Shown here piece by piece: positions 2,772 to 27,623 of a stretch of 29,212 bases of DNA. The stretch covers positions 4,162-33,373 of the forward strand of contig CAZYZR010000001.1 of assembly GCA_964651945.1 (NCBI GenBank), read 5' to 3'. Below the pieces are notes generated by a model. It was not told where the DNA came from and did not search any database. It was given only the letters and a program-made list of their open reading frames with translations. Position numbers and translations under genes: made by a program. The DNA comes from an uncultured Oscillospiraceae bacterium (GTDB lineage Bacteria > Bacillota > Clostridia > Oscillospirales > Ruminococcaceae). How positions within the stretch are numbered: the stretch's first letter is position 1; each line of letters begins with the position of its first letter.

Positions 2772-4514
2772 ATGCCAAAGAGCGACAAGACAGAAAAACA
2801 GACTGCAACACCTGCAAAAAGACATTACACGCGCAAAACAAAACCCCGGGACCCTCCCCGGTGTATCAGAATGATACCTCTCGGGGGGCTCAATGAAATC
2901 GGGAAAAATATGACAGTCTTCGAGTGCTGCGGGGACATGATGATTGTTGACTGCGGAAACTCTTTCCCCGACGATGAAATGTTCGGGGTTGACCTGGTCA
3001 TTCCCGATTTTACTTTTGTGCTTGAAAACAAAGACAGGATAAAGGGCATAGTGATAACTCACGGGCACGAGGACCACATTGGTGCGCTGCCCTACCTTCT
3101 CAAAGAGTTAAATCTACCCGTATATGCTACCAGGCTTACAAAAGGGCTGATTGAGAACAAACTTGACGAACATGGGCTCAGAAAAAAAGTAAAGGTAAAT
3201 GTTATAGAACCCGGTGACAGAATTGTCCTTGGGTGTATGACCGTGGTCCCTATATATGTGAACCACTCAATTCCGGATGCGGTGGGCCTTGCCATTGAGT
3301 CCCCCGCCGGGACTGTCCTTATGACAGGGGATTTCAAGATTGATTACACTCCTCCCAGGGGCAGGACTACCGACCTTGCGACCTTTGCCCGGTACGGGCA
3401 GAAGGGGGTTCTTGCCCTGCTCGCTGACTCCACTAACCGGGAGAGGCAGGGATACACACCCAGTGAAGAGACCGTGGGACGAAGTTTTGCGGGCTTCTTT
3501 GAACAGGCCCGGGACAAGAGGATTATCATTGCCACTTTCGCTTCCAATATATACAGGATACAGCAGATACTGGATCTTGCGGTAAAGTACAAGAGAAAGG
3601 TCAGTGTGTCCGGCAGGAGCATGGTCAACAACATTCAGATGGCTCTTGATCTGGGATATCTCAAGGTTCCTAAAAATGTGATGATCGATCCTGAAGAGGC
3701 AAAGAGGTACAGGCCCGGTCAGATAGTCGTCATCACCACGGGCAGCCAGGGGGAGCCGCTGTCCGCCCTGGCAAGAATGGCCGGGGGAACGCACAGACAG
3801 TTCTCGGTGGGAAGAGAGGATTTCATCATTATCTCCGCTACGCCAATTCCGGGAAACGAAAAAACTGTCACAAAGGTAGTCAACGGGCTTCTTAAATCCG
3901 GAGCCCAAGTAATCTATGAGTCCATGTACGATGTCCACGTCTCCGGTCACGCCTGTCAGGAAGAAATAAAGCTGATTCTGAGCCTTGTAAAGCCAAAATT
4001 TTTCATTCCGGTTCATGGAGAGTATAAGCATCTGATCCGCAATGCCTCCCTTGCAAGGAACGTGGGAGTAAAAGAGGAAAATATAGTTCTCGCCAACATA
4101 GGCGATGTACTGAGGATAGACCGGAGCGGAATTGCCGTTGAAGGTACGGTTGCCAGCGGCCGGGTGCTGATTGACGGACTCGGAGTGGGGGATATGGGGA
4201 GCGCAGTCATGCGTGACCGACGCCACCTTTCCCAGGATGGCATTGCAGTGATTACATTCACCGTTGACAGCAAGACCGGCCGGCTGCTGGGTGGTCCTGA
4301 AATAGTTTCCAGGGGCTTTGTCTATGTAAAGGAAAATGAGGCCCTTATGAGCGAGGCCAAGATGGCAGCCAGGGCAGTTATAGAGAAATACAGCAAATAC
4401 GACTATATTGACTGGACAGTTGTCAAATCCAAAGTGAGGGACCAGGTTGCAAACGTCCTCTACAAAAAGACGAGGAAGAACCCGCTGATTCTTCCCATAG
4501 TCATGGAAGTGTGA
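2772..4514 (+). CDS. rnj: Ribonuclease J
   Basis: 580 aa; IPLGGLNEIGKN, THGHEDHIG (metallo-beta-lactamase), HSIPD, GDFKID, TGSQGEP, HVSGHA, PVHGEY. Confidence 0.96.
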   Translation: MPKSDKTEKQTATPAKRHYTRKTKPRDPPRCIRMIPLGGLNEIGKNMTVFECCGDMMIVDCGNSFPDDEMFGVDLVIPDFTFVLENKDRIKGIVITHGHEDHIGALPYLLKELNLPVYATRLTKGLIENKLDEHGLRKKVKVNVIEPGDRIVLGCMTVVPIYVNHSIPDAVGLAIESPAGTVLMTGDFKIDYTPPRGRTTDLATFARYGQKGVLALLADSTNRERQGYTPSEETVGRSFAGFFEQARDKRIIIATFASNIYRIQQILDLAVKYKRKVSVSGRSMVNNIQMALDLGYLKVPKNVMIDPEEAKRYRPGQIVVITTGSQGEPLSALARMAGGTHRQFSVGREDFIIISATPIPGNEKTVTKVVNGLLKSGAQVIYESMYDVHVSGHACQEEIKLILSLVKPKFFIPVHGEYKHLIRNASLARNVGVKEENIVLANIGDVLRIDRSGIAVEGTVASGRVLIDGLGVGDMGSAVMRDRRHLSQDGIAVITFTVDSKTGRLLGGPEIVSRGFVYVKENEALMSEAKMAARAVIEKYSKYDYIDWTVVKSKVRDQVANVLYKKTRKNPLILPIVMEV

Positions 4515-4540
4515 TTATCCGTACAAAGGTTTAAAGGGTT

Positions 4541-6484
4541 ATGAAAAACAGATATTGGGGAACTGACGTACTGATTGTGATATTGTCATTGTCCACGGCG
4601 CTGTTTGCCGGGATTGCAATGTTCACCAATCCCGACAAAGCTCTGTACATATTCGGCCGGTTCCTTTTCCTCATTTTCATTCTGGTGATAAACATAGGTG
4701 CCATCAGAAGGGCCATCAGAGGGGTTTTCTTCGGCCACGGAAAGGGGGCTGCCAGACAGCAGCTGAGCTTTGAAAATCTCAGCCTGCCCCTTGCAATTGT
4801 GAGCAAGGGCGGAGTTGTCTGGTACAACGACGCTTTCAGGGATAAAATCCTTCAGGGCGAGGATTGTTACCTGACGCCTGTGGAAAAGATAATCCCCGGA
4901 TTCGACCCTTCAAGTTCCACCGGGAGGGAAGGGCTGTCAATAACTCTTGACAAGAGCCGGTTCACCGTCTACTCAGCCCGGGCATCCGATGACAATACCC
5001 TGTGGGTGTGTTATTTCGTGGACGACACCCTGCTTAAATATGAGGCTTCTGAATATCATCTCTCCAGACCGGTAATAATGGAGATAGTGGTGGATACCTA
5101 CGATGAGATCCTTATGAATCTCCGTGACAGCCACCGCGCCACAATAATGGCGATGCTTGACAAGCTTGTGGAGGATACCGCCTCCCGGGCAGACGGCATT
5201 TCCATGAAACTCGGAGTCAGCCGTTACCGAGTGATAATGGAGGACAGGTATTTTGAAAAGATACGCCGGGGCAAGTTTGAAATCCTGTCAAAAGCCAGAG
5301 GACTTGACGGGAATAACGTGACAGTTTCCATAGGTGCGGGTCGCGGAGGCAAGACCTTCCGGGAATCTGATGCCCTTGCAAAACAAGCCCTTGACATGGC
5401 TCTTGGCCGTGGAGGTGATCAGGCGGTCATCAAAGGTGAAGACGGGTATGAATTTTTCGGTGGCACCCGCCGGGGAGTCGAAAAAAGGAGCAAAGTCCGC
5501 AGCCGCATAATAGCGGATGCTTTAAGAGATGTGATTATCCAGAGCGAGACCGTGCTGATAATGGGCCACAAGAACAGCGACTTTGATGCAGTCGGGTCCG
5601 CAGCCGGCATGGCCGAAGCAGTCAGGAGCCTGGGCAGGAAAGCATATATTGCCATAAATGAGGAGGTAACCCAGGCGGGAAACCTCATTGAAAAAATAAA
5701 ATCTTCCACCGATATAGACCTGTTCATTTCCTATGACAGGGCCCGGAGGTATGCAGCAGCCAGTGATACGCTGCTGATAATCGTCGATACGAATGCAACC
5801 CGGATGACTGAATTCCCGGAGCTTGTGACAAAATGCAGGAGAAGAGTTCTGATAGACCATCACCGCAGGTCACCGGAATATATAAGCGATACAGTCGTTT
5901 CATATCATGAGACCTATGCCTCCTCTGCCAGTGAGCTTGTAACTGAGCTTCTCCAGTATATTCTTCCCGCAAACTACAGAATGGACAGCATATGGGCCCT
6001 TGCCCTTCTCTCCGGAATAATGCTTGACACAAGAAATTTTTCTGAGAGCGTGGGAGTGAGGACCTATGAGGCGGCCGCATATCTTCGCAGACATGGAGCA
6101 CTCTCTGTTGATGTGCTCAAGATGTTCAGCGTTTCAAAGGAAGTTTACAAGGCAAAGACAAACCTGGTAAATTCCGCCAATATATATAAAGGCGTAGCCA
6201 TAGCTATGTCCGACAATTTGCAGGATGACCTGTATGTGGCCATTCCTCAGGCTGCCAATGATCTTCTGACCCTTGACAACGTTAAGGCATCCATAGTGGC
6301 TGTCAAAATGGGGGACAGGGTAAATATTTCTGCCCGCAGCCTGGGGGATATGAATGTCCAGCTTTTAATGGAGCGGCTGGGCGGCGGAGGACACCTCACT
6401 ATGGCCGGTGCTCAGCTGAGTGATGTGAGTGTGGCTCAGGCGGAAGATATGATAAAACAGACCATAGACAATTATCGGGGATAA
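4541..6484 (+). CDS. gdpP: Cyclic-di-AMP phosphodiesterase GdpP (DHH/DHHA1 with degenerate GGDEF)
   Basis: 647 aa; two N-terminal TM helices, [32 protein letters not shown]; usual position upstream of rplI-dnaB. Confidence 0.88.
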
Positions 6485-6513: not shown

Positions 6514-6954
6514 ATGAAAGTAGTATTGCTGCAGGATGTAAAGAATCTCGGGGCAAAGGACCGGGTGGTGAATGTTTCGGACGGTTACGCCAGGAATTTT
6601 CTGTTTCCGAGGAAACTCGCCAGGGAGGCAACAGCAGCGGCTCTCAATGACGTAAAGACAAAGGAAGAGGCAAAGGCTTTTCGCCTCCGGGAGGAGAAAA
6701 AGGCGGCCGAAGAACTTAAAAAGCACCTGGACGGCAGGACCGTAACCATAAAAGCAAAAGCCGGCAAAGAGGGAAAGCTCTTCGGCGCTGTGACCACAAA
6801 GGATGTGGCAGAAGCAATAAAAGAACAGCTTGGATTTGAAATTGACAAGAAAAAACTTGTAATGGACGACATCAAATCATACACCAGCACCCTTTGTGAG
6901 GCAAGAATTTACCCCGGGATCCAGGCGAAACTTACTGTTGTGGTAGAGGCATAA
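6514..6954 (+). CDS. rplI: 50S ribosomal protein L9
   Basis: 146 aa; [33 protein letters not shown]; GGAGG RBS. Confidence 0.97.
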
Positions 6955-6955
6955 T

Positions 6956-8338
6956 ATGGCGGAGCTGGACGTTGCACTCGGGGGAGTGGATTTAAAGCCC
7001 CCTTATGCCATTGAAACCGAACAGGCGCTGCTGGGGATATCAATAATTGACCCCGAGCAAATACCCACAATAATAGAGATTGTAAAGCCGGAGTATTTCT
7101 ATGTGAAGCAGAACAGGCAGATTTTTTCCGAGATAGTCAGCCTTTTTATGTCCAATACTCCGGTGGATTTTGTTACCCTTGTGGATGCGGTTATCTCAGC
7201 AAAGATTTTCTCTGATGAGACCGAGGCAAAAGTTTACCTTTCGAATGTGGCTGAGACTGTCCCCAGTATATCAAGGGTGCGGGATTATGCCAAAATTCTC
7301 AGAGACAAATACCTCATCCGCTCCCTTATGGAGACAGCCCAGGATATTCTCAGGCAGACCCAGGAAAGCTCTGATGCGGACCTCCTCCTTGAGAGTGCCG
7401 AACAGAAAATATACTCACTGAGGCAGGGAAAGGACACTGTGGGGCTCAGACACATAAGCGAAACCGCCGCTGAGAGTTTTGACAGACTGAGGAAACTTTC
7501 CGGCAAGGACAGTGCAAAATATCTCGGCGTGGCCACTGACTTCAGATTCCTTGACGACAAACTCGGCAGACTTGGAAAAAGCGATCTGATAATAGTTGCA
7601 GGACGCCCCGGAATGGGGAAGACCAGCTTTGCTTTGAATATTGCCACAAATGTCGCTAAAAATTCCAATATTCCCGTAGCTATTTTTTCGCTTGAAATGT
7701 CATGTGAACAGCTGACCGAGAGGATTCTCTCCTCAACAGCCGGAATTGACAGCACCAAACTCCGCACGGGGGACATACAGCCCGCAGGCTGGGAAGTAAT
7801 AAGCAATGCAATAGGGAAAATAGCGGATTACCCCATCTACCTTGACGACACACCTGCCATTACAATAACCGATATGAAAGCCAAGATAAGGCGTCTCAAT
7901 CAGAACCCAGAAATTGACAACGTAGGGCTGGTGATAGTGGATTACATACAGCTTATGAGCACAGGCAGGAGGACTGAAAACAGGGTACAGGAGATAAGTG
8001 AGATAACCCGAAATCTCAAAATAATGGCAAAGGAGCTGGATGTGCCGGTCATTGCCCTCTCCCAGTTAAACAGAAGTGTGGAGAGGATAGGCAGCAGGGA
8101 CAACCGACCCCAGCTTTCAGACTTGAGGGATTCAGGTTCAATAGAACAGGATGCCGATGTGGTAATGTTTATCTACAGGGATGCATACTACAACAAGGAT
8201 GAGAGCGCCAATCCCAATTCGGCGGAGTGCATAATAGCCAAAAACCGCCATGGGGAGAACGCAACCATACCGCTTTCCTGGGATGGCGCCCACACCCGTT
8301 TTTCAGATGTGGATTTTATTCACCGGGATGAGAGATAA
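6956..8338 (+). CDS. dnaB: Replicative DNA helicase
   Basis: 460 aa; AGRPGMGKT (Walker A), FSLEMS, IVDYIQLM, ALSQLNR, SDLRDSGSIEQDAD, IAKNRHG. Confidence 0.97.
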   Translation: MAELDVALGGVDLKPPYAIETEQALLGISIIDPEQIPTIIEIVKPEYFYVKQNRQIFSEIVSLFMSNTPVDFVTLVDAVISAKIFSDETEAKVYLSNVAETVPSISRVRDYAKILRDKYLIRSLMETAQDILRQTQESSDADLLLESAEQKIYSLRQGKDTVGLRHISETAAESFDRLRKLSGKDSAKYLGVATDFRFLDDKLGRLGKSDLIIVAGRPGMGKTSFALNIATNVAKNSNIPVAIFSLEMSCEQLTERILSSTAGIDSTKLRTGDIQPAGWEVISNAIGKIADYPIYLDDTPAITITDMKAKIRRLNQNPEIDNVGLVIVDYIQLMSTGRRTENRVQEISEITRNLKIMAKELDVPVIALSQLNRSVERIGSRDNRPQLSDLRDSGSIEQDADVVMFIYRDAYYNKDESANPNSAECIIAKNRHGENATIPLSWDGAHTRFSDVDFIHRDER

Positions 8339-9719
8339 AGTTTTAAACACTATAGAAAAGTACAATATGATAAAAAAAGGCGATACAGTTGCCGTATGTC
8401 TCTCCGGAGGAGCGGACAGCATGGCACTGTTTCACCTTTTGTATTCGGAAAAAGAGAACCTTGGGATCAATATTCTTGTCCTGCATGTAAATCACGGGTT
8501 GAGAGAGGAGAGCCGGCAGGAGGAAATTTTTGTCAGGGATTATTGTCAGACTCTGGGTGCGGAATGCAGAATCTACAGGGCAAAAATGGGGGAGAAACCG
8601 CTTCCTCAGGGGATGTCCACTGAGATGCGGGCACGAAATGAGAGATACGGATTTTTCACTTCCTCAATCGGCAATACCGGGACATTGCTTGCCACCGCCC
8701 ACACCGCTTCCGACAGGCGGGAGACGGTTCTTTTCAATATCACCAGAGGTTCTTCTATAAGAGGAGCGGCAGGTATTCCCCCTGTGAGGGACTATGTCAT
8801 CCGACCGCTCATTGAATGCACAAGGCGGGATACTGAAAGGTACTGCGAACTTAACGGTATTCCGTTTGTCAATGACAGAACAAATTTTCAAACCGATTAT
8901 TCCCGCAACAGGATAAGACTTAAAGTGATTCCGGAACTCATACAGGTTAACAGCCGGGCTGTGTCAAATATAAACTTTTTCGCCTCTGAAAGCCGGGAAA
9001 TATATACACTTTTGACACAATTAAGTGATAAACTTTACGACGAATCTTTTAGTTGCGGGAGTTTCGACACCTCCTTGCTGATCCGGGCACATCCCGCAGT
9101 GACAAAGAACCTTCTGAGAAACTATCTTGAGAAAAACGGGTGTCTTTCAAGGGATGGAGTTGAAGCTGTTTTTTCACACCTTTGCGGCGGGGGAGGACAG
9201 CTCTCCAAGGATTTATATTTTCGCGTCCGCAACGGCAGACTCTGGTTTTACGGCGCAGAATCATCCCTTGAAACAACAGAACCTGTCGCTGTATGCCCTC
9301 CTTGTGAAGTCTGTTTTGCACAGAAAATTTTTTCTTTTTGTTTTGTGGACTATTCCCGTTACAAGGAAATCCTTGCAGAAGGAAAAAATTGTTTCACAAA
9401 TGCAGTGGATTGTGATAAAATAAAAGACAGCATTTTACTTCGCCGGCGAAAACCAGGGGATAAAATAACTCTCCCCCGCAGGAATGTTACAAAAACCCTT
9501 AAAAAACTTTTTTCCGAGGATGGGATTCCTCCGGAGAAAAGGGCAAAAACAGCGGTTTTGTCAGACAGTCGCGGGAATGTTCTATGGGTCTCGGGCTACG
9601 GTGCTGACAGGCACTTTCTTCCCGGCAAAGGTTCTGCTAAAATACTTATAATCAGCGAAGAAAAGGAAAATGCGGAGGGGCAAAATGCTGGAAGATGTGG
9701 CAAATATTCTGATAAGTGA
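8328..9719 (+). CDS. tilS: tRNA(Ile)-lysidine synthetase
   Basis: SGGADS PP-loop, HVNHGLR, ATAHTASD, IRPLI, RNRIR; start placed at ATG 8328 (MRDKVLNTI), overlapping the dnaB end by 11 nt, rather than at the ORF-track start 8250. Confidence 0.92.
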   Translation: MRDKVLNTIEKYNMIKKGDTVAVCLSGGADSMALFHLLYSEKENLGINILVLHVNHGLREESRQEEIFVRDYCQTLGAECRIYRAKMGEKPLPQGMSTEMRARNERYGFFTSSIGNTGTLLATAHTASDRRETVLFNITRGSSIRGAAGIPPVRDYVIRPLIECTRRDTERYCELNGIPFVNDRTNFQTDYSRNRIRLKVIPELIQVNSRAVSNINFFASESREIYTLLTQLSDKLYDESFSCGSFDTSLLIRAHPAVTKNLLRNYLEKNGCLSRDGVEAVFSHLCGGGGQLSKDLYFRVRNGRLWFYGAESSLETTEPVAVCPPCEVCFAQKIFSFCFVDYSRYKEILAEGKNCFTNAVDCDKIKDSILLRRRKPGDKITLPRRNVTKTLKKLFSEDGIPPEKRAKTAVLSDSRGNVLWVSGYGADRHFLPGKGSAKILIISEEKENAEGQNAGRCGKYSDK

Positions 9720-10224
9720 GGAAGAAATCAGACAGATTGTTCGGGACCTGGGAAGACAGATAACCCGGGATTATGAGGGCAAAAACCTTTATCTCATAAC
9801 CGTCCTCAAAGGTGCAGTGGTATTCCTGTCTGATCTTATAAGGTCCATAGGATGTCACTGCGAGCTGGATTTTATGGTTGTCTCGTCCTATGGGTCCGGG
9901 ACGAAATCCTCCGGAAACGTGAAGATTGTAAAGGACATAGATGTTCCACTTGAGGGCAAGGATGTTCTTATAGTTGAGGATATACTGGATTCCGGGCTGA
10001 CTCTTCACTTTCTTATGGACCTTCTGGCCAGCCGACATCCGAAAAGTATGGAAATTTGCACTCTTCTGGATAAGCCGAGCCACAGAGCCTGTGATGTAAA
10101 TGCCAAGTATATAGGAAAACAGATTCCGGATGAATTTGTCATAGGTTACGGGCTTGATTACAACGAAAAATACCGCAATCTTCCGTTTATAGGCGTTCTC
10201 AAACCGGAAGTCTATACTGAATAA
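9685..10224 (+). CDS. hpt: Hypoxanthine phosphoribosyltransferase
   Basis: [40 protein letters not shown]; start at ATG 9685 after GGAGGGG; overlaps tilS by 35 nt. Confidence 0.95.
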
Positions 10225-10252: not shown

Positions 10253-12253
10253 TTGACCAAACAGAGAAACAGGGGCCAGATTCCCTTTATAGCATTACTG
10301 CTTCTGCTTATAGTGCTGGCTGTCATACTTAGCAGGCCGACGCAGACTACTGATCTGCGGACAAGCGAGGTCATCGACCTTTTCCGCAACCATCAGGTGA
10401 CTGCTTATGAGTTGAATCTCGGAAACGGAAATATTGAAATTGATGTAGCCGGCAGTGACGAAAATATTATCTACAAGGTCCCAGATGTCTACTCTTTCCT
10501 TGAAAAGATAGACCCTTATGTGGACGAGTACAATGAGCGGCATCCCAACAACCCGATGCTTTACAACTGGATAGTGCCTATGTCGCTTCCGGGCTGGGTA
10601 AGCATAATTCCGTATATTATAATGATCGGCTTCCTTGGCTTTATGTTCTACATGATGTACAGCCAGCAAGGGGGAGGGCGAGGTGCCGCTGTAGGCAGGG
10701 TAAAGACCAAAGATGCCTCTGAAAGCGCCCAGAAGAAAACATTCCGGGATGTGGCAGGTGCGGACGAGGAAAAAGAGGAGCTCGTTGAGATTGTCCAGTT
10801 CCTCCGCAACCCATCCAAATACAATTCCCTGGGGGCCAGAATTCCAAAAGGCGTGCTGCTTGTGGGGCCTCCCGGCACAGGTAAAACTCTTCTGGCCAAG
10901 GCAACCGCAGGTGAGGCCGGAGTCCCGTTCTTCTCAATTTCCGGTTCTGATTTCATAGAGCTGTATGTAGGCGTTGGCGCATCCAGGGTAAGAGACCTCT
11001 TTGAAAAAGCCAAGAAAAATTCGCCTTCGATTATATTTATAGATGAAATTGATGCTGTCGGTCGTCAGAGAGGCGCAGGCCTCGGCGGAGGGCAGGATGA
11101 AAGGGAGCAGACCTTAAACCAGCTGCTTGTCGAAATGGACGGGTTTACCGCAAATGAAGGGGTTGTTGTAATGGCGGCTACAAACCGTGCGGATATCCTG
11201 GACCAGGCTCTGCTTCGTGCCGGCCGCTTTGACAGGCAGATATATGTGGGTACCCCTGATATAAAGGGTAGGGAAGAGATTCTGAAAGTCCACTTCAGAG
11301 GCAAGCCTATGGGACCGGATATAGACCTCAAGGCTGTGGCAAAGGCTACTCCCGGATTTACAGGTGCGGACCTTGAAAACCTGGTGAACGAGGCTGCTCT
11401 TATGGCAGCAAAGAAGGGCAAAAAAGCCATAACCCAGGCTGAAATTGACCGGGCCACAATCAAAGTCATAGCCGGCCCTGAAAAGAAATCAAAGGTAGTG
11501 ACCCCCCAGGAAAAACGCCTTGTTTCCTTCCACGAGGCAGGACATGCAGTTGCCCATTACTACTGTCCCACTGCTGACAAAGTGCAGGAGATTTCCATTA
11601 TACCCAGGGGCATGGCAGGGGGCTACACTATGGCACTTCCTGAAAACGATGTAAACTACCGCACAAAGACCCAGATGAGTGAACAGATTGTCACCCTGCT
11701 GGGAGGTCGCTGTGCTGAGCGGCTTATACTTGATGACATTTCAACCGGAGCGTCCAACGACCTTGAAAGAGTCACTGACCTGGCAAAATCCATGGTGACT
11801 CGATACGGGTTCTCGGAGAAACTTGGAAATGTGGTTTATGGCAGCGACCCGAGCCAGACATTCCTCGGCCGTGATTACAGTCAGGGCAAAGTATATTCAG
11901 AGGCCGTAGCGGGTGAAATCGATGTGGAAGTCCGCAAAATAGTGGATGAAGCCTACCGGAAATGTATGGACATTCTCAGCGAGCACGAGGACAAACTGCG
12001 CATAGTCGCCCGGGAACTTATGGAAAAAGAGAGAATTTCCGGCCGGAGATTTGCTCAGCTTATGGCTGACGATTACGATCCGGAAAAGGACGGCGGAAAT
12101 GCGGTTGACATTGACCTTTCGGCAAAGCATTCTGCAGCGGCAGGGCTTTCAGAAAAAGAAATTTCTGAGGCATCCTCACCTGATACACAGGTTTCTGCCC
12201 AGAAGTCCGATACTGCAGAAGATGGCGGACGGCCGGGATCTGAAAATAAATGA
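10253..12253 (+). CDS. ftsH: ATP-dependent zinc metalloprotease FtsH
   Basis: 666 aa, TTG start after AAAGGAG; two TM helices, [30 protein letters not shown]; low-complexity C-terminal tail. Confidence 0.97.
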
Positions 12254-14456: not shown

Positions 14457-14479
14457 ATCAGACACCCGGGGAGGACAAG

Positions 14480-19283: not shown

Positions 19284-19408
19284 TTAATATGCAGTCCGGG
19301 CTTCGGCTTTATCTTCGCGCTGACAATTTGTGTTTTTGGGATATTTTCATTGCGAGCAAATTGTTGTAATATATTATCAAAATATTTTATTTGATTCAGA
19401 GGTGGATG

Positions 19409-20563
19409 ATGGAATTCAGATGGTATACCCGGCGGGATCCGGGAGCAGAGGACGCTTACAAGATAAGGAAGATTGTTTTCTGCGATGAAGTGGGATTCAC
19501 TGAGGATTTTGAATTTGATGAAACCGATAAAATCTCCTGTCACCTTGTTCTATATCTAGACGGGATTCCCACCGGAGCGGCAAGGATAAACAGGGAAGAG
19601 GGAAATACATGGCATTTCGGGCGCCTTTGCTGTCTTGTACCCCACAGGGGGAAAGGGCTGGGAAAAGCCCTGCTGAATGAGGCTGTGAGGAAATGTCTCT
19701 TATTTGGTGCCGACAAAATTAATCTGGGGGCAAAATACGATAAGAGGGATTTTTACAGGTCCCGGGGATTTTCTCCAACCGAAGAAATATTCTACGAAGA
19801 GGGAATACCCCACATTAATATGACCAGAAATTTTGATATTTCCCCTGTTACAAGAGATTCCTTTGACATACCTCAGCATGCGAATCTTTTCGCCCTGATA
19901 TACAGGCGGAGTGCAGAGCTGGCAGGAAGTGCGGGACGGGAAGCTGCAGATAAAGGTACACAGCTCTATGGCAGACAAAGAGGCCGGAGAATGGCGGAAA
20001 GAGCAAGAAGGGACGGAGCTCCCCTCAATATGGAGAGCTATCTTCTCTACGGTGAATGGGAGGACAAAAACTATCGTTCACAAAGCGAAGAAGCCCCCAC
20101 CTCTCCACGGTACACAACCCTTGTATCAAAGTGCGGATGGTGTGAAGCCTGGAAAGAGTCGGGACTTCTTGAGTACGGGAAAAATTATTGCACTTACGTG
20201 GACAAGAGCCTTGTCCGGGGGTTTAACAGCCGGCTGAGACTGGATATACAGAGCATTCTTTCCCAGGGCGGAGACAGATGCTGCTTTGTATGGAATGGGT
20301 TTTCCCTGGACTCAGATTCACAAAAAGCAGATTATGTCCGGAAATCAAAGGGCATGAGCCCGAAAAAAATCAAGGATTTTCTCTATCATACCGGCCATCT
20401 CCTGCGGGCGATGACATCCCGGATAGGCCGGGAACTGGGTGAGGAGAAAGCCGGAGCGATAAAAGAAAAAGCCCTCAGAGATTTTGAAGGTATGTACGGA
20501 CAGGAGCAGACTGCGGCGGTGATTGTAGAGGCAAGGCAGGACTTTACTCTGGTGGATTATTGA
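19409..20563 (+). CDS. GNAT acetyltransferase (ElaA/YjcF-like) fused to an ATC-hydrolase-like (V4R-related) domain
   Basis: N-terminal RKIVFCDE, EFDETD, GRL..RGKGLGKALL, FY..xGF, EGIPH; C-terminal YGxxRGxRMAxRA, CGWCEAW, YCTYVD, GFN, GGDRCCF. Start placed at ATG 19409 after GAGGTG (19406 is also possible). Confidence 0.7.
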   Translation: MEFRWYTRRDPGAEDAYKIRKIVFCDEVGFTEDFEFDETDKISCHLVLYLDGIPTGAARINREEGNTWHFGRLCCLVPHRGKGLGKALLNEAVRKCLLFGADKINLGAKYDKRDFYRSRGFSPTEEIFYEEGIPHINMTRNFDISPVTRDSFDIPQHANLFALIYRRSAELAGSAGREAADKGTQLYGRQRGRRMAERARRDGAPLNMESYLLYGEWEDKNYRSQSEEAPTSPRYTTLVSKCGWCEAWKESGLLEYGKNYCTYVDKSLVRGFNSRLRLDIQSILSQGGDRCCFVWNGFSLDSDSQKADYVRKSKGMSPKKIKDFLYHTGHLLRAMTSRIGRELGEEKAGAIKEKALRDFEGMYGQEQTAAVIVEARQDFTLVDY

Positions 20564-20615
20564 CACCGGGAAGTTTTAAAAAGGTTTCCGGAACATATCA
20601 GGTAAACAAAAAATA

Positions 20616-20645
20616 AATGAGGCGATGGTTTTCCATCGCCTCATT
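20616..20645. terminator. Bidirectional terminator between convergent genes
   Basis: Perfect 13-bp stem AATGAGGCGATGG-tttt-CCATCGCCTCATT, A-rich on the left and T-rich on the right. Confidence 0.8.
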
Positions 20646-20659
20646 GCTTTTGTTACAAT

Positions 20660-21076
20660 TTAATTTTCGCCGCTTAACAGATTTTTTGCAAATTTTGCCG
20701 CCAGCCGGCAGTCCTCCTGATTGGGTTTTCCCCTGTTCAGCATAAGGAAAGAGCCCTTGCAGGAAAATTCTTCCTCCGCCAGAGGAATTCCTTTGTCACC
20801 GAGCAATCCTGAGATGACTTTATACGTGGATTTAGCAGCCCGTGTGGTGGAAAAGTTCACTACTTTTCCCACTTTTACATTGATATTCTTTATAAAGTCC
20901 TTAATATGTCCGTCCACTCCGCCGGCATACATCGCACTGCCCAGGAACAGAATATCCACGTCTTCATTAAACGGTTCAGTCACAGACAAGGCGGGCACCC
21001 CTGCTGCCTCCGCAATGGCCTCGGCTATTTTGCGGGTATTTCCTCCGCGTGAATAATACCTTACAGCTATTTTCAT
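20660..21076 (-). CDS. Short-chain flavodoxin-like protein
   Basis: 138 aa; YYSRGGNTRKIA (FMN phosphate loop), LFLGSAMY; GGAGG RBS. Confidence 0.85.
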   Translation of the reverse strand: MKIAVRYYSRGGNTRKIAEAIAEAAGVPALSVTEPFNEDVDILFLGSAMYAGGVDGHIKDFIKNINVKVGKVVNFSTTRAAKSTYKVISGLLGDKGIPLAEEEFSCKGSFLMLNRGKPNQEDCRLAAKFAKNLLSGEN

Positions 21077-21198
21077 TTTTCCTCCTGTATATATCCCTTG
21101 ATGTCAAATAGCATTTGATTTGATATGATTATTTCAATTTTATTTTCCCATCCCTTGCACCTGTTTTCAGTAACTTTGTCACACATTAATTATGCTGA

Positions 21199-21232
21199 AG
21201 AAAAAATTCCCCGCTCCTTGGGAGCGAGGAAT
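21199..21232 (-). terminator. Rho-independent terminator after cyclophilin gene
   Basis: ATTCCcCGCTCC-ttg-GGAGCGaGGAAT stem (one mismatch) with a U-tract on the minus strand. Confidence 0.65.
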
Positions 21233-21238
21233 GATATT

Positions 21239-21712
21239 TTATTCTATTATTTCCACTTTCTTCATAATAACTGGGGACAAGGGTTTGTCGGCACACCCGG
21301 TGGCCACGGAGGCTATCCTGTCCACCACATCCATGCCCTCAACCACCTTTCCGAAAGCGGCATAATTGCCATCCAGATAAGGTGCATCTGCATGCATTAT
21401 GAAAAACTGACTTCCGGCGGAATCAGGGACTATAGTCCTTGCCATTGAAACCACTCCCCTGGTGTGTTTCAGATCGTTCTTTACGCCGTTTGCCTCAAAC
21501 TCTCCTTTTATTGTCCATCCGGGGCCTCCGCTTCCGTCACCTTTCGGGCATCCGCCCTGAATTACAAATCCGGGAATTACCCTGTGAAATGTAAGTCCGT
21601 CGTAAAACCCACTCTTCACCAGTTTTTCGAAGTTTGCACAGGTTATCGGAGCAATCTCGGGGTAAAGCTCGATTTTTATCTTTTCACCTGTGTTCATTGT
21701 TATGACTACCAT
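21239..21712 (-). CDS. Cyclophilin-type peptidyl-prolyl cis-trans isomerase
   Basis: 157 aa; [53 protein letters not shown]. Confidence 0.95.
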
Positions 21713-21743
21713 ATTTTTATCCTTTCTTCCGGCAGCGCCGTGA

Positions 21744-22502
21744 TTATTTTCGGTTTATATTATTGTAATATCCGTACAGCCCTTTCAGAAGCAAGTCGGG
21801 GTCGTAGACATATTTTTCCCTGCAGAATGGAAGAACGGCTTTTGCCCCGCCGCCTGTGATGTATCTGGTCACACCGGATCCCAGTTCTTTTTCAAATTCC
21901 AAGTTGATCCTGTCTACACTGCCGGCCCGGCCTAAAATTATCCCGGATGACAGTGACTGCGGAGTATTTTTTCCGATGGATACTGCCGGAGGGGACAGCT
22001 TCCTGTCTACAACAAGGCCGGTGGAATTTTCCAGAGCAATCCGGGACAAGAGTATGCCGGGCATAATGGATACTCCCAGTATTGCTCCGTTTTCATCGAC
22101 CCGGGTCACAGAGGTTGCAGTTCCCATATCAGTGACAACAGCGGGCAGCTTTTCTGCCGCGATACAGGAGGCAACTATATCAGCACCCACTTCCATCGGG
22201 TCATCAGTCAGGATTTTTATCCCGGACAAATCATTCCTGAACAATAGCGGATTTCTTCCCGTGATATCCCTCAGTGCGTCACATACTTTGCCTGTGACAA
22301 CCGAAACTACGCTGCAGACAGCACACCCCTCTGTATTTTCCGCCCTGATTCCGGCATTCAGAAAACTTGTTTTAAATCCTGCCAGAAAATTTTCGTATGT
22401 CTGCCTCTTGTCGTAGTCCATTTTAATTTTTGAGTGCAGAATACCTTCTTCGAAAACGCCTATATCTATATCGGTGTTTCCCACGTCGACACATATCAAC
22501 AT
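21744..22502 (-). CDS. coaX: Type III pantothenate kinase
   Basis: 252 aa; [38 protein letters not shown]. Confidence 0.9.
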
Positions 22503-22510
22503 AATAATTT

Positions 22511-22539
22511 ATTTTATCACAAGAATGCTGTTATATAAA
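22511..22539 (-). promoter_or_regulatory. Extended -10 promoter (TGA-TAAAAT) immediately upstream of coaX ATG
   Basis: Minus-strand -10 at 22511-22516 with TG, -35-like TTTATA at 22534-22539 (17-nt spacer); only 8 nt lie between the -10 and the ATG. Confidence 0.5.
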
Positions 22540-22680
22540 CCTCACTGTAAAAAATTTTACAAATTTACAAATTCTACATTCAGTCGTTATCAGGAAACAG
22601 GGGTAAATGTTGTTATGGCATATTCCGGTATGTCAGAATATTTACAATTTTCTGTTTCCACCCATAAACTCAATATTTTA

Positions 22681-22689
22681 TGGTACAAT
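22681..22689 (+). promoter_or_regulatory. Extended -10 promoter (TGG-TACAAT) for the pseudouridine synthase
   Basis: TGn followed by TACAAT about 58 nt upstream of the likely start; -35 is poor. Confidence 0.45.
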
Positions 22690-22747
22690 GAATCCGGTGA
22701 TTACGTTTATCCGTAATTGCTTATTGCTTTATCCGGGGTATTCAGCG

Positions 22748-23467
22748 TTGCGACTGGACAGATATGTGAGCGAGAGCCTGGGAATTTCGAGAAAAGAATC
22801 TTCACGGATCATAAGGCACGGAGAGATTGAAGTAAACGGAATCAGGCAGAAAAGCTCCTCTTTTTCAGTTTCGGATGAGGACAGAGTCTGCCGAAACGGA
22901 GAAGAGCTTTTAAGAGAAGATTTTGTATATCTTATGATGAACAAGCCCATAGGCGTGTTGAGTGCATCCGAAGATTCCGGCGGCCTTACCGCCCGGGATC
23001 TGGTGAAAGATGATTTTCCCAGAAGAAACCTTTACCCCGCAGGCAGGCTTGACAAGGACAGCACAGGACTTTTGCTCCTCACCGATGACGGGACATTTGC
23101 CCACTTTGTCACATCTCCCAAAAGGCACGTGGCAAAAAACTATATAGTCTCAATTGACTCTCCCGCAACTGAGAATATAATAGAAGGTTTTAAAAACGGG
23201 ATTGTACTCCCCGACGGTGAAGTGCTGAAAAGTGCCGAACTCAGGCCCCTCAGCCCCGATGGACTTACTTGCCAAGTCACCATATCTCAGGGAGTCTATC
23301 ACCAGATAAAGCGCATGTTCGGTGTCTATGGGATCGGCGTAAACTCCCTTCACCGCATCTCAATAGGCGGGCTTGTTCTCCCGCAGGATTTGGCTCCCGG
23401 GGAATACAAAAAGCTCAGTCCGGAGGATCTTGTCGCAGCGGGTTATAAGAAATTTCCCGATTTTTAA
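22748..23467 (+). CDS. RsuA/RluB-family pseudouridine synthase
   Basis: S4 domain beginning LRLDRYV (TTG start at 22748 inferred), MNKPIG, AGRLDKDSTGLL (catalytic Asp), EG-like QGVYHQIKRMF, LHRISIG. Confidence 0.88.
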   Translation: MRLDRYVSESLGISRKESSRIIRHGEIEVNGIRQKSSSFSVSDEDRVCRNGEELLREDFVYLMMNKPIGVLSASEDSGGLTARDLVKDDFPRRNLYPAGRLDKDSTGLLLLTDDGTFAHFVTSPKRHVAKNYIVSIDSPATENIIEGFKNGIVLPDGEVLKSAELRPLSPDGLTCQVTISQGVYHQIKRMFGVYGIGVNSLHRISIGGLVLPQDLAPGEYKKLSPEDLVAAGYKKFPDF

Positions 23468-23568
23468 AGAATGCTGCACATTTGCCCTTTATAATGTCAA
23501 CAGGCTTTTGACATCCCGATAATTTTATGTTTTGCACATAAACATAGGTGAAAAATTGTAAATCAATG

Positions 23569-23597
23569 TTGCATTTTGTTGAATAATTGTGTAGAAT
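23569..23597 (+). promoter_or_regulatory. Sigma-A promoter for CdaR-ftsEX operon (TTGCAT-17-TAGAAT)
   Basis: -35 at 23569-23574, -10 at 23592-23597. Confidence 0.55.
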
Positions 23598-23655
23598 AGT
23601 AATTATTAAGTTTAAGAGTTGTATAAAATAACAAAGTTTTTTCGGGGGAGTAGTT

Positions 23656-24741
23656 ATGTCAAACAGGATGTTTCAGGGAATTATTTACCAGATGAGGGAG
23701 ATAATAGGCAGGACAATCGGAGTTACTGATGAAATGGGCGTAGTTGTGGCCTGCAGTGATCTCAGCCAGGTGGACGGAATCCGCAACGGGGTCCAGAGCG
23801 AGAGGATGGCAAACAATTCTGCCTTTACCCGCAACGGATTTTCATACCGCGGTTTTACCAGCACAAAGAGGAATGACTTCTATGTCTTCGTTGAGGGCAC
23901 TGATGAGCAGGCAGACAAGTATGCAGCTATGCTCGCAGTCACCCTGCAGAATCTGAAACAGTTTCATGATGAGAAATTCGATAGGCTCAATTTCATTAAA
24001 AATGTTGTGATGGACAATATAATGCCCGGGGATATTTACGCCAAGGCAAGGGAGAAGCATTTTGCTACGGATGTTCCCAGGGTGGTTTTGATAATCAGGG
24101 TGGAGCAGCAGAAAGAGATGTCCGCATATGAAGTTGTGCGGAACTTGTTCCCCGACAAGCAGAAGGATTTTGTATTTGAAACCAGTGAGACCGACACAGT
24201 CCTGATCAAAGAGCTCAAAAAGGGAATAGAGACCAAAGATATTGAAAAACTTGCCGCTTCCATTGTCGATACCCTCAATGTGGAATATTATATAAAGGCT
24301 GTCGTTGGGATCGGCACTCAGGTAAACAACATAAAGGATCTCTCCACTTCATTTAAAGAGGCTCAGATGGCACTTGAAGTGGGAAAAGTTTTTGACACTG
24401 AAAAGTCAATAGTAAATTACGAGAATCTCGGGATAGCCAGGCTCATTTATCAGCTTCCCACCACATTGTGCGAAATGTTCCTGAAAGAGGTTTTCAAACA
24501 GGGTTCGATAGAGAGCCTTGACCGGGAGACACTGTTTACAATTCAGAGCTTTTTCGAAAACAATCTGAATGTAAGTGAAACTTCAAGAGGACTTTTTGTC
24601 CACAGGAACACCCTTGTGTACCGTCTTGAAAAGATAAGAAAAATAACCGGGCTGGATTTAAGGCAGTTTGACGATGCAATAATATTTAAAGTTGCCCTTA
24701 TGGTGAAGAAATATCTTCAGTCAACCCAGGAGAGATATTGA
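23656..24741 (+). CDS. CdaR/PucR-family transcriptional regulator
   Basis: 361 aa; N-terminal sensor region, GGDEF-like middle (VVGIGT, SFKEAQMAL), C-terminal HTH FFENNLNVSETSRGLFVHRNTLVYRLEKI. Confidence 0.85.
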   Translation: MSNRMFQGIIYQMREIIGRTIGVTDEMGVVVACSDLSQVDGIRNGVQSERMANNSAFTRNGFSYRGFTSTKRNDFYVFVEGTDEQADKYAAMLAVTLQNLKQFHDEKFDRLNFIKNVVMDNIMPGDIYAKAREKHFATDVPRVVLIIRVEQQKEMSAYEVVRNLFPDKQKDFVFETSETDTVLIKELKKGIETKDIEKLAASIVDTLNVEYYIKAVVGIGTQVNNIKDLSTSFKEAQMALEVGKVFDTEKSIVNYENLGIARLIYQLPTTLCEMFLKEVFKQGSIESLDRETLFTIQSFFENNLNVSETSRGLFVHRNTLVYRLEKIRKITGLDLRQFDDAIIFKVALMVKKYLQSTQERY

Positions 24742-24839
24742 ATTTGTCTGCCCTCCGGATTCATTCCCGGGATGGCTTTTCCCGGTATCGCTGTATGTGC
24801 TTGCTCAACAGTTTATTTTGCGGGGTTCAGGAGTAGAGG

Positions 24840-25523
24840 ATGATAGATTTTAAAAATGTCACAAAGAAATACGAGCCCAATATAACCGCTCTGAAAAACA
24901 TCACAGTTCACGTGGACAAGGGGGAGTTTGTGTTTGTGCTTGGCCACTCCGGGGCAGGAAAGAGCACTTTTTTAAAGCTTATGCTCCGCGAGGAGAAGGC
25001 CGACAGCGGCAAAATTGTGGTAAACGGCTACAATGTAACCGACATAAGGGAGAAAGACATCCCCTATATGCGCAGGACTCTTGGAGTGGTTTTTCAGGAC
25101 TTCAGGCTGATACCCAACCTCACCGCCTTTGAAAATATAGCCTTCGCCATGAGAGTGACCAACATCGACGAAAAGGAGATCGACAAACGAGTTCCGTATA
25201 TACTGAACCTGGTGGGCCTTCAGGGAAAAGAGGACAAGCTCCCTGCTCAGCTTTCAGGCGGTGAACAGCAAAGGGTTGCTCTTGCCAGAGCCCTTGTCCA
25301 CAATCCGGACCTTGTGATAGCGGATGAGCCCACGGGAAATATAGACCCACAGCTTTCAATAGAAATTATGGAACTTTTGAAGGCGATAAACCACACAGGT
25401 ACTACTGTTCTGGTGGTGACCCACGAAGTAGAACTTGCAAAAAGGTATGCTCAGAGGATAATAGAAATGAGGTCCGGCACGATAATCGGGGATACATTGG
25501 CTAAAAAGGCGGTGGCAGAATGA
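24840..25523 (+). CDS. ftsE: Cell division ABC ATPase FtsE
   Basis: 227 aa; GHSGAGKST, GVVFQDFRLI, LSGGEQQR, IADEPTGNID; upstream of ftsX. Confidence 0.93.
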   Translation: MIDFKNVTKKYEPNITALKNITVHVDKGEFVFVLGHSGAGKSTFLKLMLREEKADSGKIVVNGYNVTDIREKDIPYMRRTLGVVFQDFRLIPNLTAFENIAFAMRVTNIDEKEIDKRVPYILNLVGLQGKEDKLPAQLSGGEQQRVALARALVHNPDLVIADEPTGNIDPQLSIEIMELLKAINHTGTTVLVVTHEVELAKRYAQRIIEMRSGTIIGDTLAKKAVAE

Positions 25524-26428
25524 AATTTTCGAGTTTCAAATATCTTCTCGGCCAGGGTTTCCGCAACTTTAAAGGGAACCGTCTTATGAGTGTCGCCTCC
25601 GTAGGCGTGGTGGCTTCCTGTCTGATTCTCACCGGTATTTGCGGGTTATTGGCCCTAAATGTCAACAGTTTTGTAAATTACCTCGGCGCCCAGAACGAGG
25701 TCGTGATATATCTCCGGGAGACCGCCACTGAGGACCAGATAAGCAATATGGAAAAAAAGCTTTCTTCCGACAGTGACGTATCATCCTATGTGTTTGTATC
25801 CAAGGAAGATGCCCTCAAAGAGCAGATGGGATATATGGGCCAGTATGCCAGCTTACTTGAGAGCTATCAGGGGGAAAACAACCCGCTCCCGGCTTCCTTC
25901 AGGGTTCATGTCCGGGATCTTAAACGGATCAACAGCGCATCATACCGTTTTTCGGGTATGGAGGGTGTGGATTATGTGTCCACTCCGACTGAAATTGCCA
26001 GTGTTCTGATTACCCTCAAAAATATAGTGTTTTATGCGGGTATTGCCATTCTCGCCACCCTTTTCCTCGTCAGCATGGTGGTCATATCAAACACCATAAG
26101 GCTGACAGTATACGCCAGGAGGAGGGAGATAAGCATAATGAAGTATGTGGGTGCCACAAACGGATTTATCCGCTTCCCCTTTGTAGTGGAAGGGCTGATA
26201 ATAGGCACAGTGTCATCCGTCATTACATTCCGGGCAGTCAGTGCGGGATATGTTTATCTGTTCAATTACATAACATCCCAGGCCACCGGTCTTATTGCGA
26301 TGCTTTCTCAGTGCATAATCCCATATACGGATATACTCCCATATATGGCGGTTGTTTTTCTTCTCTTCGGTTGGATTATCGGCGGTCTTGGAAGCGCTCT
26401 CTCGATGAGAAGATACTTAAAAGTCTGA
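25520..26428 (+). CDS. ftsX: Cell division permease FtsX
   Basis: 302 aa; four TM helices, ISNTIRLTVYARRREISIMKYVGATNGFIRFPFVVEG. Confidence 0.93.
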   Translation: MKFSSFKYLLGQGFRNFKGNRLMSVASVGVVASCLILTGICGLLALNVNSFVNYLGAQNEVVIYLRETATEDQISNMEKKLSSDSDVSSYVFVSKEDALKEQMGYMGQYASLLESYQGENNPLPASFRVHVRDLKRINSASYRFSGMEGVDYVSTPTEIASVLITLKNIVFYAGIAILATLFLVSMVVISNTIRLTVYARRREISIMKYVGATNGFIRFPFVVEGLIIGTVSSVITFRAVSAGYVYLFNYITSQATGLIAMLSQCIIPYTDILPYMAVVFLLFGWIIGGLGSALSMRRYLKV

Positions 26429-26441
26429 TTGGAAAAGTTAT

Positions 26442-27623
26442 ATGAAAAACGACAAGAAAAGTAAAAATATTATAGTCCGCATTCTCTGTCTCGTGTTTGT
26501 TTTTGCCATGAGTGCAGGGCTTGTGTCACCTTTTATTGCCTATGCTGATTCAAAGGATGATTTTCTTGAGGCCCAGAAGAAGCTGGATGCAATAAATGAG
26601 CAGATTGCTGGTCTCAACGATGAGGAGAAAAAGCTGGAGAGCCAGAAGAAAAACGCCAATACACAGATGGATCTGGTCAAGCAGCAGATAAACATCCTCA
26701 AAAACGACATTGGCACTTTGCAGGAAGACCTGCGGAAAAAGCAGGAGGAGCTTGATGCCAAGAAAATTGAGATTGAGGACACCGACCAGCTCTTTAAGGA
26801 TAGGCTAAAGGCGATGTATATAATGAGAAGCGGCGGAAATCTTTCCACAATACTTGCCGTTGACAGCTTTTCCGAGCTTCTCACTGCCACGGATACCCTT
26901 CAGAGAATCTCCGTTGCGGATACAGACCTGATAAAATACCTGTCTGAACAGAAAAAGATAATAGAAGAGGAAGAGGCTTCAATACAGGATTCCCTCAATG
27001 AACTTGTGGAAAAACAGGGGACTATGGAGGACAAGCAGTCGGAACTCGCAGGCCTTATGCAGACTCTTGATGATCAGCTCACTGACACAGAGGCCAAACA
27101 GCAGGCGGCCCGGCGGGACCGGCAGGTGATATATGAAGAGTACCAGCGGGCCAAAAAAGCAGTTGAGGCTGAGTTCGGCGAGAGCTATACCGATCAGTTC
27201 GTGGGCGGTGAGTATATCTGGCCGGTTCCGGGCTATGGGAACATTTCCTCAGGTTACGGCCCCAGGTCCTTTTACATTTACGGAACCCCTTATTCGGATT
27301 TTCACAATGGGATAGATATATCCGGCGGTGGAATACATGGGCGGCCTATAGTTGCATCAAACTCCGGTATGGTGAGGAGAGCCCAGTACGGCACTTCCGG
27401 CTACGGCAATGTTGTGGAGGTGGACCACGGGGGCGGAAACTATACCTTGTATGGCCACTGCTCATCCCTTGCGGTGGGTGTGGGAGATTACGTGACCCAG
27501 GGACAGGTTATAGCCTATGTGGGCAACACCGGATTTTCCACCGGTCCTCACCTGCATTTTGGGCTTTACACAGGAGGAGGCTTTGTGGATCCCACGCCGT
27601 ATGTTTCCGGATCAAGGCCCTGA
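26442..27623 (+). CDS. Secreted coiled-coil plus M23 peptidase (EnvC/CwlO-like FtsEX partner)
   Basis: 393 aa; signal peptide, long coiled coil, YIWPVP, FHNGID, GYGN, YGHCS, STGPHLHF. Confidence 0.88.
   Translation: MKNDKKSKNIIVRILCLVFVFAMSAGLVSPFIAYADSKDDFLEAQKKLDAINEQIAGLNDEEKKLESQKKNANTQMDLVKQQINILKNDIGTLQEDLRKKQEELDAKKIEIEDTDQLFKDRLKAMYIMRSGGNLSTILAVDSFSELLTATDTLQRISVADTDLIKYLSEQKKIIEEEEASIQDSLNELVEKQGTMEDKQSELAGLMQTLDDQLTDTEAKQQAARRDRQVIYEEYQRAKKAVEAEFGESYTDQFVGGEYIWPVPGYGNISSGYGPRSFYIYGTPYSDFHNGIDISGGGIHGRPIVASNSGMVRRAQYGTSGYGNVVEVDHGGGNYTLYGHCSSLAVGVGDYVTQGQVIAYVGNTGFSTGPHLHFGLYTGGGFVDPTPYVSGSRP

Follow-up and report, generated by a model that had tools for sequence, protein, structure and literature searches.

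The stretch of DNA analysed here (hereafter, the window; 29,212 nucleotides, G000:C1:4162-33373) belongs to the genome of an uncultured Oscillospiraceae bacterium, designated G000 (1.34 Mb in 148 contigs, 46.5% GC, estimated to be 86% complete), and its interest lies in the codon CGG, which specifies arginine in the standard genetic code. Homologues of its GyrB assign the organism to the Oscillospirales of the gut. The plus strand carries a long series of genes from RNase J to an S41 peptidase, and the minus strand those for RNase HI, a class-V aminotransferase, and CoaX (Table 1). CGG makes up 122 of the 556 codons of the arginine box (22%) in the 23 open reading frames (ORFs) of the window, in agreement with the first-pass annotation, which had estimated roughly a fifth of the apparent Arg codons. 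In the whole of G000, it occurs 2865 times in 221,051 codons (13 per 1000), and is the third most used codon of the box.

Table 1. Genes of the window with their CGG codons, and features of G000 and G005 lying elsewhere (positions without a contig are those of the window)
Feature	Position	Strand	CGG codons	Remarks
RNase HI	2034..2498	-	4	Pfam; just outside the span read in the first-pass annotation
RNase J	2772..4514	+	8	Pfam
GdpP (cyclic di-AMP phosphodiesterase)	4541..6484	+	11	Pfam; none in Arg columns
Ribosomal protein L9 and DnaB helicase	6514..8338	+	2 each	Pfam; conserved Arg on other codons
TilS and HPRT	8250..10224	+	8 (TilS), 3 (HPRT)	Pfam
FtsH	10253..12253	+	9	Pfam
GyrB-like protein	12471..14456	+	4	
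GyrA-like protein	14480..16729	+	8	mostly in Glu/Gln/Ala-tolerant columns, none in Arg columns
RNase R	17247..19283	+	15	
GNAT/ATC-hydrolase fusion	within 19391..27623	+	13	
RsuA-type pseudouridine synthase	within 19391..27623	+	2	
PucR/CdaR-like regulator	within 19391..27623	+	2	
FtsE, FtsX, M23 peptidase	within 19391..27623	+	0, 4, 6	
S41 peptidase	in the window, after the M23 peptidase	+		
Class-V aminotransferase, CoaX	in the window	-		same strand as RNase HI
tRNA(CCG) of G000	G000:C95:2622-2697	-		outside the window
TadA-like tRNA adenosine deaminase	G000:C3:30190-30621			Pfam PF14437, 117 bits
tRNA(CCG) of G005 (L073)	G005:C18:8820-8895			

Ten window genes having at least nine outgroup homologues (those for RNase J, GdpP, L9, DnaB, TilS, HPRT, FtsH, GyrB, GyrA, and RNase R) were aligned with 9–79 homologues per gene, drawn from 79 Oscillospirales loci, and X was put in place of every CGG in all sequences, to avoid presupposing any meaning. 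RsuA and CdaR had no outgroup alignment in this test, and the genes of 19391–27623 were covered by the genome-wide test alone. Codons located in columns with at least 80% Arg amounted to 6/11 for CGT, 22/46 for CGC, 7/17 for CGA, 28/78 for AGA, and 43/109 for AGG, as against 0/68 for CGG (106/261 for the other five together; Fisher p = 8.4e-14), and the count for CGG was still 0/68 with the threshold lowered to 50%. The first-pass annotation had proposed this very comparison, having met all five other Arg codons, and never CGG, at conserved motif arginines; both halves of that observation are borne out by the column counts, which cover the genes of the ~30 motif codons that it listed, RsuA and CdaR apart.

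For the genome-wide test, 611 ORFs of G000 were compared with two outgroups, G020 (a complete genome of the same order, 1.2 Mb used) and G016 (0.79 Mb used). Antisense shadow ORFs were taken out beforehand, a filtering that hardly shifted the main figures. Such long antisense ORFs, for example those on the minus strand of contig C1 opposite the window genes, are kept between genomes through conservation of the sense strand, and since a sense CCG (Pro) appears in them as CGG, surveys of codon meaning based on six-frame ORFs need to be filtered. After filtering, CGG was opposite Arg at 51 of 1226 sites in G020 and 36 of 897 in G016 (~4%), compared with 45–68% for the other five Arg codons (p = 1.2e-230 and 5.8e-175, respectively) and 50–54% for CGA in particular. 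The outgroups' own CGG codons are opposite Arg of G000 at 43% (G020) and 37% (G016) of sites, showing that both outgroups use the standard code. CGG is therefore not an arginine codon in G000, a conclusion we hold to be practically certain; the further claim of the first-pass annotation, that the loss is specific to CGG with CGA remaining arginine, also stands.

A candidate for the new decoder was found among the 28 tRNAs detected in G000 with ARAGORN, in which the anticodons of the arginine box are ACG, CCU, and CCG. The sole tRNA with a CCG anticodon is a normal 76-nucleotide (nt) tRNA according to both ARAGORN and Rfam (RF00005, 61 bits, cloverleaf confirmed). Its acceptor stem (GCGCUCG/CGGGUGC) has the pairs G1:C72, C2:G71, and G3:U70, and is followed by the discriminator A73. 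The D-loop is AGUUGGGA, with G at position 20 in place of the Arg determinant A20, and the D-arm is that of the tRNA-Ala of relatives. The anticodon arm, on the other hand, resembles the canonical tRNA-Arg(CCG) of the genus, and is identical to it in most members of the clade described below. The variable loop has 5 nt. The G3:U70 pair is the main determinant for alanyl-tRNA synthetase (AlaRS), which reads the acceptor stem and ignores the anticodon; the tRNA(CCG) should therefore be charged with alanine, as far as can be told from its identity elements. Among the minor elements of tRNA-Ala, A73 and G20 are present, and position 2:71 is C:G, whereas the type-B tRNAs of two relatives (G011 and G035) have G2:C71. 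The tRNA set also fits a change confined to CGG. CGU, CGC, and CGA remain Arg and would be read by tRNA-Arg(ACG), the anticodon of which is presumably converted to ICG by the TadA-like enzyme encoded in G000 (Table 1); their reading is thereby accounted for. AGA and AGG likewise remain Arg.

The tRNA was compared among 32 species-level genomes of the genus, which are related and thus not independent of one another. A CCG tRNA with G3:U70 and A73 is present in 15 of them, both features being kept in 15/15 carriers, and a canonical 77-nt tRNA-Arg(CCG) with G3:C70 and A20, in some cases with G1:U72, is present in about ten; G012, G022, and G026, for instance, have G1:U72, G3:C70, and A20. In a tree of GyrB plus GyrA, the G3:U70 carriers form one clade (98 in the Shimodaira–Hasegawa-like approximate likelihood-ratio test, SH-aLRT), which is sister to G006, and the carriers and G006 together lie beside the clade with the canonical tRNA. 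Eight crown species among the carriers have A at position 20, another six have U, and G000 has G. The acceptor stems of G011 and G035 (the latter being NCBI record CAKSZX01, ‘uncultured Oscillospiraceae bacterium’, from a Hadza gut sample) are GGGGGUG/CAUCUCC and GGGCGUG/CAUGUCC, the former identical to the tRNA-Ala(UGC) stem of G020, and both genes are located at a locus syntenic with that of other carriers. Judged from these sequences, tRNA-Ala features have been approached repeatedly, which would be difficult to understand if selection were not acting on alanylation. The identity of the anticodon arm with that of canonical tRNA-Arg(CCG) in most clade members suggests that the G3:U70 tRNA descended from an Arg tRNA; no synteny was found between the G3:U70 locus and that of the canonical tRNA-Arg(CCG), so that descent in situ is unsupported. 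Separately from this, the tRNA(CCG) gene of G005 is 96% identical to that of G000, G005 is placed on the gyrase tree next to the two species with the tRNA-Ala-like stem, and the flanks of its gene have nothing in common with the loci of other carriers; the gene could have been laterally transferred or relocated.

The clearest of the columns in which CGG occurs also point to alanine. G020 and G016 have the same residue at 99 CGG sites, and this is Ala at 28, Glu at 23, Lys at 10, and Ser at 7. With an expectation built from G000's own codons, the plain log-likelihood over these two-outgroup columns is best for Ala, with Ser 5, Glu 42, and Gln 46 below it. In the window, individual CGG codons are located at Ala or Ala/Ser positions of motifs: in RNase R, the codon at 17967–17969 is the Ala of the EAxxRGTS motif (Ala in 10/10 outgroups, and in the RNase R structures of B. 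subtilis, 8cdu, and E. coli, 5xgu); in FtsH, that at 10745–10747 is the Ala of TFADVAG (Ala in 13/15 outgroups, and in E. coli FtsH, 7vhp); and in RNase J, that at 3438–3440 lies within the DSTN[A/S]E motif (Ala in 9/10 and Ser in 1/10 Oscillospirales, Ser or Ala in the solved RNase J1 structures 3zq4 and 6k6s). Other small-residue positions are taken as well, namely the Ser of RmlA GGSGTRL, the Ser of the PTSG motif of an ABC ATPase, and a Gly of RNase HI GNPGPGGYG; the last corresponds in the window to the codon at 2433–2435 in GNPGPGGW[CGG]V, at which relatives have Gly, Gly, Cys, or CGG. The CGG codons of G035, a species with the tRNA-Ala-like stem, are opposite Ala of G000 more often than any other residue (48/214).

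Gyrase, for which 14 clade genomes were compared with up to 79 outgroups, has CGG codons common to several clade genomes, which are the oldest. Three columns have CGG in 14, 5, and 4 clade genomes, and clade siblings without CGG carry GCN there (N, any nucleotide). The first is GyrB residue 629 (14355–14357), at which CGG is kept in 14/14 clade genomes and the 79 outgroups have Ala 50 and Ser 13. The second is GyrB residue 648 (14412–14414), at which CGG alternates with GCN in the clade and the outgroups have Ala 59, Ser 12, and Val 7. The third has Ala 36 and Leu 12. Such long-shared codons carry the most information on the meaning of CGG, and in the alignments they point to Ala. At both GyrB sites, the sister clade with the canonical tRNA-Arg(CCG) has Gln (CAG/CAA, 11–13 genomes). 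Gln at a column of small residues, one transition away from CGG, is odd, and the history of the site or of the ancestral code may be more complex than a single switch. Taken together with the tRNA, these columns make alanine the most likely meaning of CGG in G000, with a probability that we put at about three in four.

Several results weigh against alanine, and the column evidence for Ala specifically is weak, far weaker than that for ordinary codons. Genome-wide, the residues opposite CGG are dispersed (Glu 16%, Ala 16%, Lys 11%, Ser 10%, Asp 6%, and Gln 6%). In a Codetta-like log-odds test on the window, no residue was positive for CGG (Glu -0.5, Ala -11.3, and Gln -15.6), whereas the residue proper to each normal codon scored ~+1 nat per site. 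The single-outgroup likelihood over all sites placed Ser, Glu, or Gln above Ala, and its result shifted with the conservation filter; we judged it uninformative because most CGG sites are at unconserved positions. Nor was Ala singled out by mixture models in which the self-match fraction was free. Their picks of Pro, Gly, Gln, and Ser, with a self-fraction near 0, were rejected as artefacts of fitting a generic surface-site profile; Gly and Pro are single-step neighbours of CGG, and no self-matches were seen for them. Only 24% of CGG sites are in columns where both outgroups agree, in comparison with 43–51% for ordinary codons. The share of CGG in Glu columns (1.8%) approaches that in Ala columns (2.1%), though Glu codons are two steps away. 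Among 20 genome-wide CGG sites common to another clade genome, G020 has Glu at 8, Ser at 4, and Ala at 1; several of the ORFs behind these sites are antisense artefacts. As for the tRNA, the type-A stem of G000 has C2:G71 instead of the G2:C71 of typical tRNA-Ala, and the finding of only 28 tRNAs in an 86% complete assembly leaves room for a second decoder of CGG.

CGG is in addition absent from conserved columns of all kinds. No CGG was found among ~6000 codons of the 14 clade genomes in gyrase columns conserved at 90% or more in the outgroups, and in strictly conserved gyrase columns the counts were 0/387 for Ala, 0/110 for Gln, 0/498 for Arg, and 0/42 for Trp; in the two-outgroup comparison, CGG made up 0% of Gly columns and was present in 0/89 Trp columns, which excludes these single-step neighbours as meanings. 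This absence could be expected if CGG were still Arg and avoided at important sites on account of a rare or slow tRNA. Such an explanation is close to impossible: true Arg codons, even at variable sites, are opposite Arg at 45–60%, far from the 4% of CGG; CGG is not rare, being the third most used codon of the box; G020, G016, and the relative G004, which has a canonical tRNA, do have CGG in Arg columns; and the tRNA(CCG) has G3:U70 and is devoid of A20. With 0/68 in the Arg columns of the window and 4% aligned with Arg genome-wide, we regard it as refuted. Serine, which scored closest to Ala in the likelihood above, is ruled out structurally, since bacterial seryl-tRNA synthetase requires a long variable arm and the variable loop of the tRNA(CCG) has 5 nt.

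Glutamine and glutamate each find some support in the columns. Were CGG synonymous with CAG, as in other Clostridia, the many columns with CAG in relatives (Gln reaches 85%, 64%, 42%, and 95% in gyrase CGG columns of G000) and the enrichment of Gln opposite CGG, the highest of any residue at about 2–3 fold, would follow directly, and some relatives have been inferred as Gln or uncertain in a recent preprint (10.64898/2026.04.02.715157). About one Gln codon in three would then, however, be CGG, while it fills 1.1% of the two-outgroup Gln columns and is absent from the 110 codons in strict Gln columns of gyrase, though CAG to CGG is a single transition. GyrB residue 629 has no CAG/CAA in any of the 14 clade genomes and is an Ala/Ser column in the outgroups, and the G1:C72 and A73 of the tRNA(CCG) differ from the U1:A72 of G000's own tRNA-Gln genes. 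Together with the deficit of 46 in log-likelihood, this makes glutamine very unlikely, and recent CAG to CGG transitions would account for the Gln signal. Glutamate is the commonest residue opposite CGG genome-wide (198/1226 in G020 and 152/897 in G016), the top-scoring meaning in the window profile test, and the top G020 residue at the CGG sites common to another clade genome. Its log-likelihood is nevertheless 42 below that of Ala; CGG fills 0.30% of Asp columns, compared with 6.6% for true Glu codons, whose commonest partner is Asp; small-residue positions such as those in FtsH TFADVAG, RNase R EAxxRGTS, RmlA GGSG, and RNase HI GGYG are unfit for Glu; and the tRNA(CCG) is without the anticodon and D-arm features that, by textbook knowledge, are used by glutamyl-tRNA synthetase. 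Glutamate is thus also quite improbable.

It is also conceivable that CGG is ambiguous, read as Ala but partly still as Arg or as some other residue, at any rate in the species keeping A20, with selection confining it to harmless sites; this would suit its avoidance of strictly conserved columns of every residue class. The eight crown species that combine A20, C35, and G36 with G3:U70 use CGG at 0.7–2.1 per 1000 gyrase codons, compared with 2.8–12.0 in those having lost A20 (Mann-Whitney 0.002); the correlation of CGG usage with the GC content of third codon positions is weak (rho 0.45, p 0.11). In a 120-kb sample of the A20-keeping G024, CGG occurs at 1.4 per 1000 codons, and G000 has Arg or Lys opposite it at 8 of 15 informative sites, compared with 19 of 190 for G035 (Fisher 1e-4). 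On the other side, the A20-keepers form a single subclade, so that the contrast in usage comes near to one phylogenetic event; the CGG sites of G024, only 19 in this sample, have zero Arg in the outgroups; G000 itself has G20, and its CGG is opposite Arg at 4% of sites; and the mutational distance of CGG from GCN is enough to keep it out of conserved columns, with no need for ambiguity. A dual Ala/Arg identity is possible in the A20-keeping species, and ambiguity as an account of CGG is on the whole unlikely.

Alanine thus remains the preferred meaning of CGG, and a history that would produce the profile described above can be proposed. It would begin with CGG becoming almost unused in the genus; most relatives with the canonical tRNA have 0–0.7 CGG per 1000 gyrase codons, suggesting that the codon was nearly lost before the switch, as codon-capture models expect. 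An exception is G004 (L043, canonical tRNA), in which CGG reaches 8.5 per 1000 gyrase codons and is confined almost wholly to Arg columns, while its closest relatives have almost none; CGG usage in the genus varies widely even with the standard meaning. In the common ancestor of a clade of at least 13 species, a gene derived from tRNA-Arg(CCG) would then have acquired G3:U70, in a single event, after which CGG would have re-expanded. As CGG is at least two substitutions from every GCN codon, it would not have spread into conserved Ala columns; new CGG codons would arise by single steps from CAG, AGG, CGN, TGG, CUG, CCG, or GGG, and survive where Ala is tolerated. Within the genus, CGG is indeed mainly opposite CAG, GAA/GAG, AAA, and GCN. 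This mutational isolation would account for the diffuse Glu/Ala/Gln/Lys/Ser profile of the columns and, with CGG unreachable from GCN in one step, for the failure of profile methods on the new meaning.

More tentatively, the genus may preserve successive stages in the identity change of one tRNA, although we consider this staged history doubtful. G3:U70 would have been gained first, with the Arg determinants A20, C35, and G36 kept, a state in which the crown species would hold CGG very rare; A20 would next have been replaced in separate lineages, by U in several species and by G in G000; and one lineage would finally have turned the whole acceptor stem into that of tRNA-Ala, with CGG expanding several-fold at every step. 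Should the tRNAs that keep A20 prove to accept both Ala and Arg, the genus would illustrate in nature how codon reassignment can proceed through an ambiguous intermediate.

Some features of the window genes themselves may be added. The longest ORFs overlap by 89 bases between DnaB and TilS (8250–8338) and by 50 bases between TilS and HPRT (9670–9719), and the true starts of TilS and HPRT probably lie downstream of the first in-frame start codons. The GyrB-like protein of the pair at 12471–16729 has no HATPase_c match in Pfam at E <= 1e-5, and the GyrA-like protein is short (749 amino acids), with a weak match to one C-terminal beta-propeller blade only. The pair may be topoisomerase IV-like instead of gyrase.

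The consequences of the proposed reassignment extend to annotation. Under translation table 11, a wrong Arg is placed at ~1.3% of residues, or roughly four charged residues per 300-residue protein, which skews predictions of structure, isoelectric point, and membrane topology, as well as the assignment of families, across a whole clade of metagenome-assembled genomes (MAGs) from human and animal guts. If CGG is indeed alanine, the case shows how one change in the acceptor stem can let the anticodon-blind AlaRS take over a vacated codon, and why code predictors that work from columns find next to no trace of a captured codon when mutation does not readily link it to its new synonyms.

In comparison with known systems, the closest is a clade of the GTDB genus RGIG3102 (Clostridia, human and swine gut MAGs), for which a k-mer method inferred a change of CGG from Arg to Ala in 11 gut assemblies (bioRxiv 10.64898/2026.04.02.715157, April 2026). 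The tRNA(CCG) of that clade has G3:U70 and G1:C72 and no A20, the outgroup Arg tRNAs having G1:U72; the preprint grades the Ala meaning as ‘somewhat uncertain’, Codetta having in many cases failed or returned Gln, and raises the question of how CGA is read (10.64898/2026.04.02.715157). G000 resembles it in the codon, the proposed meaning, the tRNA with G3:U70 and G1:C72 but no A20, the retention of CGA as Arg, and the uncertainty of profile inference, and likewise shows the absence of CGG from Arg columns in which the other Arg codons are present. Since the details of the tRNA match so closely, the clade of G000 is very probably the RGIG3102 clade of the preprint. In our comparison, by contrast, the G3:U70 tRNA extends to 15 of 32 genus genomes with A20 retained in eight, and the reading of CGA is explained by tRNA-Arg(ACG) with the TadA-like deaminase. 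No further paper linking RGIG3102 with CGG was found in the literature searched. The finding is thus real and rare, and a change of CGG from Arg to Ala has already been put forward in a tentative preprint; the additions made here are independent statistics, an explanation of the diffuse profile, the exclusion of Gln and Glu, an answer for CGA, and the spectrum of tRNA variants in the clade. Reassignments of sense codons in bacteria are very rare, and that from Arg to Ala has so far been based on one tentative preprint; independent confirmation from raw sequence by a different method strengthens the case.

CGG is reported to be reassigned to Gln and to Trp (the latter of the Anaerococcus type) in other Clostridia, and CGA/CGG to Trp in Absconditabacteria (Shulgina and Eddy 2021, PMC8629427); these cases share with the present one the loss of CGG from the Arg box in low-GC Firmicutes and a changed tRNA(CCG). 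The target residue differs, and since the Gln and Trp codons are one step from CGG, the CGG-to-Gln and CGG-to-Trp codes give a clear signal in conserved columns, unlike the CGG of G000 with its 1.1% of conserved Gln columns and 0/89 Trp columns. The stage of low usage through which CGG appears to have passed, seen in the 0–0.7 per 1000 of most canonical-tRNA relatives, can be likened to the state of Mycoplasma capricolum, in which CGG is unassigned. In G000, by contrast, CGG is abundant (13 per 1000), lies in essential genes, and is matched by a tRNA with a CCG anticodon; its abundance and presence in essential genes mean that it must be translated. As for the capture of a sense codon by alanine, the precedent is the yeast Pachysolen tannophilus, in the nuclear code of which CUG has changed from Leu to Ala through a tRNA-Ala with a changed anticodon. 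Both cases would depend on the reading of G3:U70 by AlaRS with the anticodon ignored, but the anticodon arm in the present clade matches tRNA-Arg(CCG) and suggests an Arg tRNA with a changed acceptor identity.

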